Part shown: one piece after another, positions 3,599 to 58,481 of the stretch
Layout of the letters: the number at the start of each line of letters is the position of its first letter
Position numbering within the stretch: the stretch's first letter is position 1
Assembly (NCBI GenBank): GCA_964592785.1
Contig: CAZQHU010000002.1
Coordinates: forward strand, 12,680-76,679
Direction of reading: 5' to 3'
Length of the DNA: 64,000 nt
Source of the DNA: an uncultured Gammaproteobacteria bacterium
Lineage (GTDB): Bacteria > Patescibacteriota > Patescibacteriia > Magasanikbacterales > UBA922
Position numbers and translations under genes: made by a program
The notes under the pieces: generated by a model
Database searches by the model: none
Seen by the model: the letters and a program-made list of their open reading frames with translations, nothing else
What the model was told of the DNA's origin: nothing

Positions 3599-3991
3599 AT
3601 GGCGAAAACTGTTAAAAATACAAAAAAGAAAAAAGTAGCAAAACAAGTTTCTCATGGCCGTGCTTATATTCAAGCTACTTTCAACAATACCATTGTCAGT
3701 TTAACTGATCCGAATGGTGATGTGTTGGGTTGGGCTTCGGCTGGTATGGTTGGTTTTAAAGGGCCCAAAAAAGCTACTCCTTATGCTGCTTCGCAAGTGG
3801 TTAAGAGAATTGTTGATAATATTGCTGAAGTTGGCTTGAAAGAAGTCAATGTTTTTGTCAAAGGTATAGGCGGTGGTCGTGAAGGAGCTATTCGCGCCTT
3901 GAATAACAATGGTATTCAAGTTTTATCTATCAAGGATATTACACCAATTCCACACAATGGCTGTCGTCCTCCAAAACGTCGCCGCGTCTAA
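3599..3991 (+). CDS. rpsK: 30S ribosomal protein S11
   Basis: [37 protein letters not shown] is the S11 core. Confidence 0.95.
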
Positions 3992-4685: not shown

Positions 4686-5498
4686 ATGGAGGATATACTT
4701 TTGCCAACTACAATAGAATTTAACGAAGGAGAAACCAAAAATGTTGGGAAAGTTGTGATTACCCCTTGCCAGCAAGGTTATGGTACTACTCTGGGTAATG
4801 CTCTTCGTCGTGTACTTTTGTCTTCTTTGCCGGGTGCGGCAGTTGAGGCAGTGAAGATTTCTGGTGTTTCTCATGAATTTTCCACTGTTGAAGGCGTAAG
4901 AGAAGATATGATTCAAATTATTTTGAATCTTAAACAATTGGCTGTGCGTTGTTTTTCTGACCAGCCAGTCACTCTTTCTTTGCATAAAAAAGGTAAAGGT
5001 GATGTAACAGCCGCTGATTTTGAAAAAAATGCTGATGTGGAAATTGTGAATTCTGATTTGAAATTATTTACTATCACTTCGGACGCTACCAAGATTGACA
5101 TGGAAATTATTATTGGTAGAGGGCGAGGTTTCAAACCGGTAGAAGAAAAAAATTCCAAAGCTTTGGATTTGGGTACTATTTTGATTGATTCTCTTTATAC
5201 TCCTATTCGGGATATTGGTTATAATGTAGAATTGACTCGCGTGGGTGATGTTACTGACTATGAAAAATTGAATTTGCACATTGAAACCAATGGCACAATT
5301 ACTCCCAAAGAAGCAGTTCAACAGGCTACTAAAATATTACTGGAACATTTTTCTTTGATTTTGGAAGCTGCGGATGAACAAGGTCTCAAAAAAAGTAGTT
5401 CAGCATTAACAGAAGAAGAAACAGTTGAAACAACAGAAACAGAAATTTCCGAAGAACCTAAGAAAAAAACTGCTCGTAAAAAAGCTAAAAAAGAATAA
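4686..5498 (+). CDS. rpoA: DNA-directed RNA polymerase alpha subunit, N-terminal domain only; the alpha-CTD appears to be missing
   Basis: LLPTTIEFNEGETKNVGKVVITPCQQGYGTTLGNALRRVLLSSLPGAAV is the alpha NTD. The protein is 270 aa and ends in a K/E-rich tail; no helix-hairpin-helix CTD is present. Confidence 0.9.
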   Translation: MEDILLPTTIEFNEGETKNVGKVVITPCQQGYGTTLGNALRRVLLSSLPGAAVEAVKISGVSHEFSTVEGVREDMIQIILNLKQLAVRCFSDQPVTLSLHKKGKGDVTAADFEKNADVEIVNSDLKLFTITSDATKIDMEIIIGRGRGFKPVEEKNSKALDLGTILIDSLYTPIRDIGYNVELTRVGDVTDYEKLNLHIETNGTITPKEAVQQATKILLEHFSLILEAADEQGLKKSSSALTEEETVETTETEISEEPKKKTARKKAKKE

Positions 5499-47570: not shown

Positions 47571-47702
47571 TTACATTTCTTCATCAGAGAGATCTTCTTC
47601 ATCACTCTCTTCGGAATAGCACTCGCAACAATTGTCGCAAGCGTCGCACTTTGGACAAGCAATATCCTCATCCATGGGCATACCACATTGTGGACACTCC
47701 AT
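47571..47702 (-). CDS. Small zinc-ribbon protein (44 aa; absent from the ORF track)
   Basis: Manual translation gives MECPQCGMPMDEDIACPKCDACDNCCECYSEESDEEDLSDEEM (CPxCG plus CPKC and an acidic tail); a terminator hairpin follows. Confidence 0.45.
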   Translation of the reverse strand: MECPQCGMPMDEDIACPKCDACDNCCECYSEESDEEDLSDEEM

Positions 47703-47777: not shown

Positions 47778-49091
47778 CTAGATAGCCTCCCCTGGTTTTT
47801 CCATTTTCATTCCACTTTGTTTCATTACTTCTTTTTCAAAAAGAATGGCACCCAAAACTGTAACCAAGATTACAGCCAAAAGACCGGCCGCTGCGGTGAT
47901 TTCATCCAAAGCATGATTGGCCAAAGCCACAGCAATAAACACCAATCCCACTTCGCCACGGATTGACATAGCCAAACCCACCAATTTACCATCTTCTTTA
48001 TCTTTCAAAAGATAACGAGTAAGATACTTACCTACAAAAGCTAAAGCAGTGAGAATGATCGCCCAAAGCCAAGCCTTGGGAGCTAATAAAGATTCCCGAG
48101 GTAACATCGTACCAATACTGACCAAAAATCCACCAACAAAAATGTGCATATACCCTTCAACTTTTTCCCAAGTTTCGTGCTTAAGTTCATTATCAACTTT
48201 GGATAATACCACCCCGATACCAAAAGCACCTAGAACTGGTTCAAGACCAATAACCCCAGCCAAAGCACCGGCCAACATGAGTGCCCCGAAGAAAAATCTA
48301 GTAAAAGGCCCGGTGACTGCTTCAGAATTTTCTTGATAATGTTTTTCCAAGTACTTGGCAATTTTGTCAGCCACACCCCACATCCAAAGTACATAAGCCC
48401 CACCAAAGAAAGCGATTACCGCTACAAAAATCCAAACAATACTCATGGCTTCAAGTTGTCCTCCTGATAACTTAGCCAAAATAGTCAAAACCAAAACGCC
48501 TAAAATATCATCAATGACCGCAGCTCCCACAATTTTATTACCCACATCACTTTCCAATTTACCTGCTCTCTTCAAAGCCTCAACTGAAAGACCAACAGAG
48601 GTGGCAGTAAAAACACCGCCCAAAAATATTGCTGGCATCCAAGCCAAAGCAAAAACGTAATGTCCCAATAAAGCCACAGTTACCAGAGGAACCAAAACAC
48701 CTACACAAGCAATGACTGTGGAAATAAACCAATTTTTCTTGAGTAATTCCATGTCAAAATGAAGACCGGCTTCAAAAAGAATAAATAAAACACCAGCTAA
48801 ACGAGCCAATTCCACACCTTCGGAATATGGTTGTAAAATCCCCAATACTGCTGGGCCGGCTACTATACCCATGATAATTTTACCAGCCATAGGTGCAAAG
48901 CCAAGTAATTTGGCCAAACGACCGCCAAACGAGGCATAAACAGCCAAAAAAGCGATATCTATAAGCATCACCATAATCACGCTAATCTCATGACTGTGTG
49001 AGGCTTCTAGAGCAGCCCGCAAATAGTGCAAACCTACTGAGATGACCAAAACTTCTATAATCAACGTCAGCAAAGATCTTAATTTTTGCAT
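47778..49091 (-). CDS. Cation:proton antiporter (Na+/H+ exchanger family)
   Basis: 437 aa with 11-12 TM helices and the CPA-family pattern. Confidence 0.75.
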   Translation of the reverse strand: MQKLRSLLTLIIEVLVISVGLHYLRAALEASHSHEISVIMVMLIDIAFLAVYASFGGRLAKLLGFAPMAGKIIMGIVAGPAVLGILQPYSEGVELARLAGVLFILFEAGLHFDMELLKKNWFISTVIACVGVLVPLVTVALLGHYVFALAWMPAIFLGGVFTATSVGLSVEALKRAGKLESDVGNKIVGAAVIDDILGVLVLTILAKLSGGQLEAMSIVWIFVAVIAFFGGAYVLWMWGVADKIAKYLEKHYQENSEAVTGPFTRFFFGALMLAGALAGVIGLEPVLGAFGIGVVLSKVDNELKHETWEKVEGYMHIFVGGFLVSIGTMLPRESLLAPKAWLWAIILTALAFVGKYLTRYLLKDKEDGKLVGLAMSIRGEVGLVFIAVALANHALDEITAAAGLLAVILVTVLGAILFEKEVMKQSGMKMEKPGEAI

Positions 49092-49174
49092 ACAATAAAT
49101 TAATTAATAAAATTGTTTTAACCGGCAATAGTATACTCTAAATATAAATACTTTTCAATATTATTTGTGGATAA

Positions 49175-49207
49175 AAAAATAACCAGTAATTTCGGTTATT
49201 TTTTAAA
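49175..49207. terminator. Bidirectional intrinsic terminator
   Basis: aaataaccagtaatttcggttattt flanked by an A-run and a T-run. Confidence 0.6.
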
Positions 49208-49298
49208 AAATATTTTATTCCCCCACCCCGCGCCGGATCTTACCTTGTCTTAAAAAGACTTGGCAGAAATTCCGGCGCGGGGGCCTCGGCAGGTCGGC

Positions 49299-49775
49299 CT
49301 AGAAGACCAAGAAACGGAAACGGTACCTGAGATCATCGGTCCCAAGAGGTTCGAGCACCAACCCGTAGGCGGGGATTCCGAATCTCTGCTGGAACCACTG
49401 CAGACCATCATGAGCGGTCTGAATGTTCTCCAGATCACCCAAACCGCCATCGGCAGCAGCGTGGCAACCGACCACCGAACCCCGTCCGATGTGGGTGATC
49501 CCCACGAAGTGTGTAGGCTGGAAGATCCTCACCGCCCGCTCCAACAACTCACGGTTGTTGAATGGCGACCCTTCTGCCAGCCCGAGAATGGTACCGGGAG
49601 TAGCCACGACGTGCTTATCCCAGCCCTTGGAGCCGGCAGCACAGTCGATCCCCATCATCAGTTTCACGGAAAATCGATCATCTGAACACACGGCAAAAAG
49701 CACGCGTGCACCCTCCGGAATCAACAGTTCACTCAACTTGACCACATCAACCATAACTGAAGTAACTTCGGGCAT
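49299..49775 (-). CDS. Hypothetical 158-aa protein in GC-rich island 2
   Basis: About 60% GC in a roughly 33% GC background. SD GAGGTG 5 nt before the ATG (MPEVTSV...). Plus-strand ORFs here look non-proteinaceous. No family recognised; weak flavodoxin-like/CxDxR-like hints only. Confidence 0.45.
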   Translation of the reverse strand: MPEVTSVMVDVVKLSELLIPEGARVLFAVCSDDRFSVKLMMGIDCAAGSKGWDKHVVATPGTILGLAEGSPFNNRELLERAVRIFQPTHFVGITHIGRGSVVGCHAAADGGLGDLENIQTAHDGLQWFQQRFGIPAYGLVLEPLGTDDLRYRFRFLVF

Positions 49776-49855
49776 CTGACACCTCACTTTTCTTTGTTTA
49801 TTACCGGTTTCCGCCGGTACGGTTCCCTTTCCGCCGAGGAAGGGTGTTGCTAGAA

Positions 49856-49884
49856 CTTATATCAAAAAATCTTAAAAAAGTCAA
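49856..49884 (-). promoter_or_regulatory. Sigma70-like promoter driving island 2
   Basis: Minus strand TTGACT, a 17-nt spacer, then TATAAG; about 90 nt upstream of the ORF. Confidence 0.55.
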
Positions 49885-49888
49885 GACA

Positions 49889-49918
49889 AAAAAACAGCCG
49901 AATAATGGCTGTTTTAAA
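49889..49918 (-). terminator. Intrinsic terminator after the SnoaL-like gene
   Basis: aaaaacagccattattcggctgttttttt on the minus strand. Confidence 0.7.
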
Positions 49919-49933
49919 AAATATTTTATTTTA

Positions 49934-50359
49934 TTATTCTCTCGGTTTGACTGATGAATGATGATGAATAATTTTCCATTCTCCTTGGTCATTTTTTTGC
50001 CACACAAATGAAAATCTAGCTTCAACTACCTGTCTATTTGATTCCGGACCAACTTCAAAATTATACATTCCAGAATGGAGATAAACATCCTGCCCCAAAA
50101 CTTGAACTTCATCCTGCACTATTTCACCATTAGGATTTTTTTTCAAAAAATGATGAAAATAACTCTCTGCCCCAGACTGACCTTTTTTAAATTCAGAAGA
50201 AACGGTTGGTAAAAATGTGGCCTCTGGTGTATATAAATCAGCAACAACTTTAGGATCACGTGTTAACAAAGCTTCACCCCAACGAGAAAAATTATTTTTA
50301 GCAATTTCGTTAAATTCAATTTCTCTATTTTTTGTAGAACTTTCTTGTGTATCTGACAT
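49934..50359 (-). CDS. SnoaL/NTF2-like fold protein (DUF4440-like)
   Basis: 141 aa with an NTF2-like pattern (WGEALLTRDPKVVADLYTPEATF...W..I). Confidence 0.5.
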   Translation of the reverse strand: MSDTQESSTKNREIEFNEIAKNNFSRWGEALLTRDPKVVADLYTPEATFLPTVSSEFKKGQSGAESYFHHFLKKNPNGEIVQDEVQVLGQDVYLHSGMYNFEVGPESNRQVVEARFSFVWQKNDQGEWKIIHHHSSVKPRE

Positions 50360-50363
50360 AATT

Positions 50364-50801
50364 TTATTCTTTAATATTAATCTTCTTATATTTCTTCCCT
50401 ACTCTCACTCGATTCATTTCACGATCAATCACTGCTTGCAACTTGGCATAATCCACATTTTCTTGTCCTTTAACTTTGGCCATTTCTTCTTCAGCACGCC
50501 TTCTCGCTTCTTCAGCGCGGTCAATATCAATTATCTCCGCACGTTCAGCATTATCAGCAAGAATAACTATTTCATTGTTGGCACGAACCTCCAAAAAACC
50601 ACCAGAAACAGCGATGATATGCTCACCTTCTTTATCTACAATTTTAAGTTCACCAGCTTGTAAAATTGAAACAAGTGGCGAATGATGCGGTAAAACAGTA
50701 ATTTCACCAGTAGTTGTTGGAATGGAAACTTGAAGAACATCGTCTTCATAAACAACTTTTTCTGGTGTAGCGATTTTGAAGTGGATTGTTGACACTGACA
50801 T
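50364..50801 (-). CDS. atpC: F1 ATP synthase epsilon subunit
   Basis: N-terminal beta-sandwich and a C-terminal helical hairpin; it is the last gene of the atp operon. Confidence 0.85.
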   Translation of the reverse strand: MSVSTIHFKIATPEKVVYEDDVLQVSIPTTTGEITVLPHHSPLVSILQAGELKIVDKEGEHIIAVSGGFLEVRANNEIVILADNAERAEIIDIDRAEEARRRAEEEMAKVKGQENVDYAKLQAVIDREMNRVRVGKKYKKINIKE

Positions 50802-57753: not shown

Positions 57754-57921
57754 ACACTAGTCTCGCCGTAGCTTGCTGAGTGGCAAGCGAAGGCAGATTG
57801 AAAAGAAAAAGCACTTTTTTAAAGTGCCGCTATTTTACCCTATTTCAAAACCCCCGTCAAGTGTATTTTTTAGTTAGAATGTGGATGAAAAACAACTCAA
57901 TTTTAATATCCACAATAAGAC

Positions 57922-57950
57922 TTGACAATTTTCAAAACTTTTGCTATATT
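57922..57950 (+). promoter_or_regulatory. Near-consensus sigma70 promoter driving GC-rich island 3
   Basis: TTGACA, a 17-nt spacer, then TATATT. Confidence 0.65.
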
Positions 57951-57970
57951 TAGCGGTCCAATCGGGGACC

Positions 57971-57985
57971 CCTCCTTGAAGGAGG
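57971..57985 (+). promoter_or_regulatory. Perfect hairpin CCTCC-TTGA-AGGAGG sequestering the SD of the island 3 ORF
   Basis: cctccttgaaggagg is a 6-bp perfect stem; AGGAGG is the SD, placed 6 nt before the ATG. Confidence 0.6.
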
Positions 57986-57991
57986 AACACC

Positions 57992-58291
57992 ATGCATTTT
58001 TCACTGTCCGTTCACAGCACCTCGTTCCTGATCATGGTCATCAGAAAGAGAGGGCGTAGGATTGCTGCGTTCGCAGGGCCAACTCGAGAAGACATCCTGA
58101 GACTGATGAATGGCATGGGCTACGACCCCCAGGAGATCTCCACCGCGCATGAGGCCACACCGCGACACCTGGAAATGATCGCGAAATACCAGGCGCGATC
58201 GTTCGCCGGCTTCATCATTGCGATGATGAAGAGTGGAAAATGCTCCGAAGAGTCCTACTACATCGGTGAACTCTACAAGCGCGCTGGCTGA
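57992..58291 (+). CDS. Small hypothetical protein (99 aa) in GC-rich island 3; paralog of the 12582-12854 protein
   Basis: Consensus promoter and AGGAGG SD; GC-rich; leader, start and peptide motifs shared with island 1. Confidence 0.55.
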   Translation: MHFSLSVHSTSFLIMVIRKRGRRIAAFAGPTREDILRLMNGMGYDPQEISTAHEATPRHLEMIAKYQARSFAGFIIAMMKSGKCSEESYYIGELYKRAG

Positions 58292-58443
58292 GCGAGTCTC
58301 AATCATCACGAATGCCTCCAGCATGCCCGGCACGCAACCACCCCACCAGTGCCGGCATCGTTCTTTCCCACCACTCCGGCACACCCCAGTTATTATCTCT
58401 AGAAGGTAATAAATGAAAAAAACCGGAGTGAGTGAAGAAAAAT

Positions 58444-58481
58444 AAAAACAACTTTAAATTTTAAGGTTGTTTTTTATTTTT
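58444..58481. terminator. Bidirectional intrinsic terminator (serves island 3 and tatD)
   Basis: aaaaacaac...ggttgttttttattttt. Confidence 0.7.

Follow-up and report, generated by a model that had tools for sequence, protein, structure and literature searches.

A GC-rich island between the ATP synthase operon and nhaP of Candidatus Magasanikbacteria is probably a horizontally acquired single-gene expression cassette

We analysed a 64,000-nucleotide stretch of contig CAZQHU010000002.1 (hereafter the window), in which an island rich in guanine and cytosine (GC) carries, on the minus strand, an open reading frame (ORF) for a protein of 158 amino acids, ORF158. The island is probably a self-contained, horizontally acquired single-gene expression cassette of ~690 bp, moron-like in its build, residing in the chromosome of Candidatus Magasanikbacteria, a member of the candidate phyla radiation (CPR). 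The host was recognised from the flanking Na+/H+ exchanger NhaP, which matches two Candidatus Magasanikbacteria metagenome-assembled genomes (MAGs), L012 (86% identity) and L013 (76% identity). The element would be an acquired accessory-gene cassette, a known kind of element; morons are defined by their own promoter and terminator together with a deviant GC content (PMC3594210), and in Patescibacteria horizontal gene transfer is frequent and genomic islands are documented (PMC12455944). Read along the minus strand, the locus consists of a repeat copy, a terminator hairpin, the promoter, the leader, the Shine-Dalgarno sequence (SD), ORF158, a GC-rich stem, a run of G, a second repeat copy and an AT-rich terminator (Table 1). 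A sequence-only reading made beforehand had described this arrangement correctly, save for the mean GC content and the length and position of the GC stem; of its interpretation, a genuine gene with its own promoter and no confident family stands, whereas a riboswitch-like leader is not supported.

The composition of the island sets it apart from its surroundings. The window as a whole contains 35.4% GC (0.354), and the 400-nt GC profile shows two outliers, namely 49201-49600 (0.568) and 58001-58400 (0.563). At 100-nt resolution the first outlier extends over ~49220-49850 with ~56% GC, the windows between 49400 and 49650 reaching 0.60-0.63. The flanking genes have 0.34-0.42 as compared to 0.56 for the island, and GC at third codon positions (GC3) is 0.64 in ORF158 against 0.18-0.35 in the neighbouring genes; therefore, ORF158 is compositionally foreign. 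The earlier estimate of about 60-65% GC, given as the maximum of the window, is right as to GC richness but fits the peaks rather than the mean, and the maximum is a tie with the second outlier. The upstream junction of the island is present in 4 independent Logan assemblies, and the downstream junction in 2 of those 4. The organism is contained in the SRA runs SRR10276719, SRR10276721, SRR8925817 and SRR8925793. These recurrent junctions exclude an assembly artefact or a chimera, and the island is a real locus.

In both related MAGs, atpD-atpC is followed directly by nhaP across an AT-rich spacer, and neither the island nor the SnoaL/SgcJ-like gene that precedes it in the window is present. 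The downstream copy of a 19-nt direct repeat (AATAAAATATTTTTTAAAA) and the terminator next to it align with the atpC-nhaP spacer of L012, as does the 5′ region of nhaP, and the right boundary of the insert is therefore placed at ~49219/49220. By these alignments, the island is shown to be an insertion relative to related genomes, located in the spacer between the ATP-synthase operon (plus the SnoaL-like gene) and nhaP. The two copies of the repeat are exact, occur exactly twice in the window and bracket a segment of 692 nt (searched as an 18-mer, with 0.4 matches expected if up to 2 mismatches are allowed; the 19th base comes from reading the sequence).

A single distant homologous locus was found, on the 1.5-kb JGI contig L003; the ENA contig L004 is identical, and both stop at the same base inside the ORF. 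In L003 the gene (1107-1491, equal to L010) lies directly after the right inverted repeat of an insertion sequence (IS; 1-1005), which contains a single rve-family transposase gene (92-985), is bounded by the inverted repeats TGTATAGTACACCTT / AAGGTGTACTGTACA and ends 6 nt before the −35 element of the cassette. The homology begins at this −35, and TTGAC, the 17-nt spacing and TGaTATAAG are all kept. As the alignment shows, the gene is accompanied by its promoter elements and by the two leader hairpins described below in this second context too, which is unrelated to the first.

A different situation is found in a sister strain (contig L016; Logan SRR8925817), which is collinear with the window over the stretch atpC-ORF158. 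The last aligned base is 49285, i.e., 14 nt past the ORF158 stop and just before the GC stem. Beyond this junction, a convergent gene for a large serine recombinase (L016 1540-3118; Resolvase, Recombinase and Zn_ribbon_recom domains) replaces the GC hairpin and nhaP. Since the sister strain carries this element 14-17 nt past the stop, the comparison shows the site to be a hot spot for mobile DNA. In the public gene call of L016, the recombinase and the antisense of ORF158, which is free of stops there, are joined into one reading frame of 654 aa; this is an artefact. Relatives of the recombinase, with 66-72% identity, are encoded at the ends of four small CPR-type integrative elements from IMG/VR (L019-L022); L022, the one examined further, has genes for a Zot-like ATPase and a rolling-circle Rep as well. 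The recombinase gene borders directly on a transfer RNA (tRNA) gene, at the 3′ end of the latter, in 3 of the 4 elements (L020-L022); in L021 this is tRNA-Trp (4723-4796). The motif at the L016 junction, ...CGTCTCTC(C/T)TGGC(T/A)C, is common to L019-L021, and L022 keeps only its 3′ part, TGGCTC. Based on the L016 junction at 49285 and on this motif shared with tRNA-integrating elements, we infer that in some of the population the cassette 3′ untranslated region (UTR) is a site of integration, of which the window shows the unoccupied state. Positions 49283-49287 would then be the attB of the L016-type element. This site resembles the attB sites of CPR serine recombinases in that the L016 recombinase abuts the cassette via the junction motif of L019-L021, but the target is the 3′ UTR of ORF158 and not a tRNA gene. 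No GC-rich cassettes were found inside the related recombinase elements. In L022 (7056-11626; 11557-11880), the two tRNA halves lie ~230 nt apart with structured-looking sequence between them, an insert which may be an intron.

A further question is whether the cassette is the leftover cargo, or the edge, of a larger integrative element that lacks its recombinase, the 19-nt repeats being the attL/attR cores. This possibility, which is compatible with the cassette interpretation, is on balance doubtful. It would account for the exact flanking repeat, with its downstream copy in the ancestral spacer, for the occurrence of the same gene beside an IS (L003) and beside a serine-recombinase element (L016), and for a second island of the same build with a 10-nt flanking repeat. 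On the other hand, serine recombinases leave no long repeats, and the L016 element joins at 49285 rather than at the 19-nt repeats. Neither an integrase nor a transposase is evident among the neighbouring genes (atpD, atpC, the SnoaL-like gene, nhaP, EamA and UvrD); in the annotation of strain L001, integrase, transposase and phage genes are absent within 10 kb on the nhaP side, and on the other side lie atpC and atpD. Furthermore, no L016-type serine recombinase was found in the window, and the phage, IMG/VR and plasmid collections contain no matches to the cassette.

The coding capacity of the island was assessed by comparing the coding sequences (CDS) of the window and L003, which are 76% identical at the nucleotide level and differ 27, 19 and 46 times at the first, second and third codon positions, respectively. 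The sense frame is stop-free in both sequences and contains 22 synonymous and 25 non-synonymous codon changes. The other frames have either stops or 3-9 synonymous changes; for instance, the wobble-matched antisense frame acquires 2 stops in L003, and the remaining frames are interrupted in both sequences. This substitution pattern shows that ORF158 evolves as a protein-coding gene. On account of these six-frame counts, ORF158 passes the test of coding potential against its antisense frames and is regarded as a real gene, and the long plus-strand ORFs, which had already been suspected to be artefacts of GC richness, are just that. The L003 ORF suffers a 1-nt deletion at codon 92, after which the similarity resumes, stop-free, in the frame of the window (ITHIGR.SV.GCHAA...GL.DLENI); to judge from this indel, the L003 copy is possibly a recent pseudogene.

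These data also bear on the idea that the whole island is a structured non-coding RNA in which the ORF is fortuitous. Structured RNAs classically stand out as GC islands in AT-rich genomes; moreover, the 638-nt transcript folds better than shuffled sequences (z −3.7 sense, −4.4 antisense; 20 shuffles), three long ORFs overlap in the island, and the L003 copy is frameshifted. However, the concentration of substitutions at the third codon position, the 22 synonymous changes in a frame open in both sequences and the persistence of amino-acid similarity in the corrected frame past the L003 indel all speak against this idea. No Rfam match was obtained, the protein is predicted by AlphaFold2 (AF2) to adopt a compact fold (predicted template modelling score, pTM, 0.67), and the excess of folding energy derives largely from the 3′ hairpin (z −3.2 alone). 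Thus, we consider a purely RNA-level role extremely unlikely, and ORF158 is treated below as a gene with its own signals.

Transcription of ORF158 would start near 49849 from a promoter that we infer to be of the extended −10, sigma-70 type. The TTGACT-17-TATAAG promoter pointed out previously is present and its elements are kept in L003; our consensus scan omitted it because the scan demands a T at position 6 of the −10 element. The leader string, the GAGGTG SD (49785-49780) and the ATG at 49775 were likewise found as described, and the ATG aligns with that of L003. In the minimum free energy fold, the leader forms two hairpins. P1 pairs 49844-49838 with 49832-49825 (CCCUUCC/GGAAAGGG, loop UCGGC; 7 bp with a bulge), and P2 pairs 49819-49814 with 49807-49802 (UACCGG/CCGGUA, loop CGGAAA; 6 bp). 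The leader block common to the window and L003 is CACCCTTCCTCGGCGGAAAGGGAACCGT(A/G)CCGGCGG(AA/TG)ACCGGTAA. Within the 46 nt of the hairpin block, the two sequences differ at 3 positions (93% identity) as compared to 24% in the CDS (binomial P 0.0018; P 3e-6 against the third-position rate). Given this difference, the leader hairpins are under sequence constraint and are likely to have a cis-acting role of some kind.

One such role had been proposed before, namely that of a riboswitch-like, ligand-sensing 5′ UTR in which P1/P2 form the aptamer and an alternative pairing between the P1 arm and the SD switches the translation of ORF158. Like the riboswitches and structured leaders of Rfam, the cassette has a GC-rich, conserved hairpin 5′ UTR in front of a single gene and a pyrimidine-rich arm complementary to the SD: the 5′ arm CACCCUUCCUC can pair with both SDs (duplex energies −6.9 kcal/mol for the window, −8.5 kcal/mol for L003). 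In addition, the hairpin block, loops included, is far better kept than the CDS, and the single change in a stem turns A-U into G-U. Nevertheless, several results depart from what is found in these known leaders. Rfam gave no match at gathering thresholds in the whole window and, at E ≤10 in 49000-50100, no credible match in P1/P2 (49802-49844); the sole overlap with the leader is Plasmid_RNAIII at 49818-49932 (E 3; 19 bits, where the gathering threshold is 60), and the remaining matches at E ≤10 sit on AT-rich terminators or CDS. A scan for tRNA and transfer-messenger RNA (ARAGORN) found none. The folding energy of the leader is at the level of shuffled sequences (z 0.04 for the 83 nt of the window, 0.06 for L003 and −1.1 for the hairpins alone). 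As for covariation in homologous loci, the hairpins are conserved in L003, but 12 of the 13 P1/P2 pairs are invariant and the remaining one is the A-U to G-U change, so that compensatory changes amount to zero; only two independent sequences, in principle too few for a covariation analysis, were available from metagenome contigs and from protein sets of 5.8 and 1.84 billion entries. An exact 21-mer scan with the leader gave 7 matches in the JGI metagenomes, consisting of L003 and 6 chance matches in coding regions of genomes with 62-68% GC, and 0 matches in IMG/VR.

The expression platform also differs between the homologues. The linker and the SD are changed in L003 (GGGGGU, as against GAGGUG in the window), and in partition-function folds the SD of the window pairs with CDS codons 5-6 (P 0.95), that of L003 with the 5′ leader (P 0.25-0.5). 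No U-tract or terminator was found after P2. Finally, hairpins of 6-7 bp with loops of 5-6 nt offer scant space for a ligand pocket. A riboswitch is therefore unlikely. Most likely, by analogy with the 5′-terminal stabiliser hairpins known from bacterial mRNAs, the two 5′-proximal hairpins would constitute an mRNA-stabilising and/or protein-binding module, possibly affecting also the access to the SD, rather than a metabolite sensor. The conservation of loop bases favours sequence-specific recognition rather than mere stability.

At the other end of the gene, a stem-loop with an arm-to-arm distance of 33 nt (arms 49282-49271 / 49237-49226) starts 17 nt past the ORF158 stop. Its stem had been read as 11 bp long and overlapping the 3′ end of the ORF; it is in fact 12 bp long and lies wholly within the 3′ UTR, clear of the ORF. 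The region folds with −42.5 kcal/mol for 101 nt (z −3.2). Terminators of the bracketing genes, which had also been noticed, were found on both sides of the cassette, at 49915-49891 and 49174-49204. We also considered an integron gene cassette and rejected it. Integron cassettes are promoterless and carry attC sites with R″/R′ boxes and GTTRRRY, with an integrase nearby; here the 12-bp GC palindrome is perfect and has no GTT core, the promoter is the cassette's own, and no integrase was recognised among the neighbours.

The product of the cassette is an orphan. A word-indexed search of 5.8 billion proteins returned only a strain variant with 97% identity (L001/L002, in synteny) and the 100-aa product of L003 with 72% identity, and an exhaustive phmmer search of 1.84 billion representatives returned P0002 (the L003 fragment) and four long repeat proteins. 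No family was assigned by Pfam (even at E ≤10), NCBIfam, PHROGs or PADLOC (anti-phage defence), which bears out the previous statement that no confident family exists; nothing came out of scanning IMG/VR for the protein pattern or of tblastn searches in phage and plasmid collections, the sole match, in Rhodococcus, having E 0.7. AF2 with the single sequence reached a predicted local distance difference test score (pLDDT) of 40; with a multiple sequence alignment (MSA) of 3 sequences it reached a pLDDT of 62.6 with the pTM given above and the topology b-a-b-a-b-a-b-b (6-7 strands). Foldseek of this model against the PDB found nothing at E ≤1e-3. The model suggests a soluble alpha/beta three-layer sandwich, for which the term flavodoxin-like, used in the sequence-only reading, is a fair description.

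Three of the four repeat proteins retrieved by phmmer (P0003, P0004 and P0006) contain TPR_12 repeats and match query residues 48-146 with E 1e-24 to 8e-4 and a period of 42 residues, as would be the case if ORF158 were a captured fragment of a TPR_12/kinesin-light-chain-type repeat protein. These E-values are, however, sums over 5-12 near-identical repeats on one segment of the query, and the best single stretch scores 35-41 bits, which is non-significant against 1.84 billion proteins. Considering also that no Pfam TPR model matches at E ≤10 and that the AF2 model alternates strands and helices instead of forming an all-helical solenoid, such an origin is very unlikely. The fourth repeat protein is P0005 (2213 aa, E 5e-5).

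Two enzyme families were examined as leads for ORF158 using PDB-verified sequences. The best, though sub-threshold, is the Cab-type beta-carbonic anhydrase (beta-CA) family, represented by M. tuberculosis Rv1284 (1ylk), CafC (6jqc) and Cab (1g5c). The size is comparable (158 vs 163-170 aa), the predicted topology matches, and the N-terminal block VLFAVCSDDRFSVKLMMGI resembles IAIVACMDARLDVYRMLGI with Cys, Asp and Arg conserved. hhalign against an MSA of Cab-type beta-CA aligns residues 16-67 (P 0.0012, probability 19%), pairing VCSDDR with ACMDAR and HVVATPG with HVIRNAG, and 9 of 2000 composition-preserving shuffles reach the same score with the beta-CA hidden Markov model. The first zinc motif, C-x-D-x-R, is represented by C30-S-D32-D-R34, which aligns with CMDAR of 1ylk, 6jqc, 5ztp and 3vqj and is kept in L003. 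In contrast to these enzymes, the second zinc motif, HxxC, is absent (H95-I-G-R98 in the query and H-I-G-R-R in L003, aligned by eye beyond the extent of hhalign), RNAG is changed to ATPG, and Pfam Pro_CA gives no match; with an hhalign probability as low as that given above, membership is not established. ORF158 may thus be a degenerate relative of the Cab-type beta-CA that keeps Cys-x-Asp-x-Arg and a His and, since the HxxC cysteine is lost, it is probably not a canonical zinc enzyme. Lumazine synthase (RibH; PDB 1di0, 2obx) has the same length and a flavodoxin-like sandwich, and provided the only near-matches among PDB sequences (phmmer E about 1, residues 87-155). It was rejected: hhalign gives P 0.3, 164 of 2000 shuffles score equally, and the C-terminal beta-hairpin predicted for ORF158 misfits the two C-terminal helices in which the RibH fold ends.

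The second GC outlier of the window resembles the ORF158 island in its build. Its promoter is TTGACA-17-TATATT (57922-57950), and it further has two 5′ hairpins (GGUCC/GGACC and CCUCC/GGAGG, the latter over the SD), an ORF (57992-58291, plus strand) for a basic protein of 99 aa with GC3 0.69, and a GC-rich 3′ hairpin (CCGGCAC/GTGCCGG). The island is flanked by a 10-nt direct repeat (AAAAACAACT at 57888 and 58444), the downstream copy of which is part of a terminator. The 99-aa ORF has no homologue in any database searched and no family in Pfam, NCBIfam, PHROGs or PADLOC. The two islands have no DNA similarity, and with either protein as query, tblastn in the window detects no locus but the protein's own. 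Two islands so similarly built suggest a recurrent mode of acquisition. A bolder view is that both belong to undescribed miniature mobile expression cassettes of CPR bacteria, composed of a terminator-insulated promoter, a hairpin leader, an orphan gene and a GC-rich 3′ stem-loop, whose insertion sites would be intrinsic terminators or their immediate vicinity and would be duplicated over ~10-19 bp, and whose leader hairpins would be a new cis-regulatory RNA that moves along with the gene (a tiny riboswitch, or the element recognised by an unknown regulator that binds RNA); we regard this as quite unlikely.

Overall, the preferred interpretation remains the acquisition of a single-gene cassette. 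The cassette would have arrived horizontally and inserted into the atpC(+SnoaL-like gene)-nhaP spacer; from its own promoter, it would produce an mRNA on whose 5′ end P1/P2 may act as a sequence-constrained cis element; the 12-bp GC stem-loop would protect or end the transcript just before the host terminator; and the product is predicted to be a soluble alpha/beta sandwich protein. The moron concept is reportedly due to Juhala and Hendrix. Like phage morons, the cassette appears to combine a single gene with a promoter and a 3′ hairpin/terminator of its own, deviates sharply in GC, lies between otherwise adjacent genes and occurs in different genomic contexts; unlike them, it is located in a chromosome beside the ATP synthase operon, with no phage genes in the window, and bears a 19-nt flanking direct repeat, a feature not known from morons. 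Several points weigh against our interpretation. The location is chromosomal and not within a prophage, the window has no recombinase, and 19 bp is too long for an ordinary IS target duplication. The promoter, the transcription start and the 3′ end are read from the sequence, and the 5′-stabiliser role of P1/P2 is an analogy. The fold assignment comes from a moderate-confidence model based on 3 sequences, with neither a Foldseek nor a Pfam Pro_CA match. Finally, the L003/L004 copy, which has the 1-nt deletion in its ORF and abuts an IS, may be decaying, and this weakens the case for selective importance.

Table 1. Positions of the cassette elements and associated features in the window.
Feature	Position	Strand	Description
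Upstream copy of the 19-nt direct repeat	49912-49930	-	AATAAAATATTTTTTAAAA; immediately past the SnoaL/SgcJ-like stop codon
Intrinsic-terminator-like hairpin	49891-49915	-	AAAACAGCC-ATTATTC-GGCTGTTTT, then T run; between upstream repeat copy and cassette promoter
Putative cassette promoter	49856-49884	-	−35 TTGACT 49884-49879; 17-nt spacer ending TGa (TG 49864-49863); −10 TATAAG 49861-49856
Predicted 5′ UTR, ~74 nt	49776-49849	-	Hairpins P1 and P2, A-rich linker, SD GAGGUG 49785-49780
ORF158	49299-49775	-	158 aa, pI 5.7, 17.2 kDa; stop TAG 49301-49299; GC3 0.64
Antisense ORFs	49260-49779	+	49260-49685 (141 aa) and 49423-49779 (118 aa); non-coding by-products of the GC-rich gene
End of homology with L016 / putative attB crossover region	49283-49287		One junction only
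3′ UTR stem-loop	49226-49282	-	Perfect 12-bp GC stem CCCCGCGCCGGA / UCCGGCGCGGGG, inner GUCUU/AAGAC hairpin, then UGGGGG
Downstream copy of the 19-nt direct repeat	49201-49219	-	AATAAAATATTTTTTAAAA; with the next terminator, ancestral atpC-nhaP spacer
AT-rich terminator hairpin	49174-49204	-	AAAAAATAACC-N9-GGTTATTTTTT; upstream of the nhaP promoter region
Second island	57888-58453 (body 57920-58390)	+	GC 0.563; build like the ORF158 island

Some observations concern the surroundings of the cassette. The SnoaL/SgcJ-EcaC-like gene (CaMKII_AD/DUF4440; 49934-50359, minus strand) begins 4 nt past atpC and has a GC3 of 0.18, i.e., native; its homologues, with up to 74% identity, are widespread in Patescibacteria, and it is probably an older or intra-CPR acquisition. 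Downstream of nhaP, a small ORF of 43 aa rich in Cys and acidic residues (MECPQCGMPMDEDIACPKCDACDNCCECY...; 47571-47702, minus strand) is called in strain L001 too, and the atpC-nhaP spacer of L013 (about 3780-3910) contains another small Cys-rich ORF, which differs from it (MDDKCTTCAIILDSEDQYCSCNDSLCRRCCDCENDCGCGCKVN, by eye). The window and L001 are 99.1% identical overall, their differences being clustered in two patches: 13 substitutions in 49294-49331, corresponding to the last 11 codons of ORF158 and the beginning of the 3′ UTR, and 53 substitutions in atpC (50500-50750), inside which the L001 contig ends. From this clustering, the two patches look like recombination tracts from diverged alleles.

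If our interpretation is correct, the cassette is one more single-gene horizontal acquisition in a streamlined CPR genome, and it opens no long-standing question. It holds two lessons for annotation: a GC island in an AT-rich genome need not be a structured RNA, and antisense ORFs in such islands are mis-called, as in the public fusion of a recombinase with the antisense of ORF158. Of modest interest are the leader, which stays at 93% identity while the gene drifts to 76%, the 19-bp flanking duplication with no recombinase to explain it, and the use of the cassette 3′ UTR by a serine-recombinase element whose relatives target tRNA genes.

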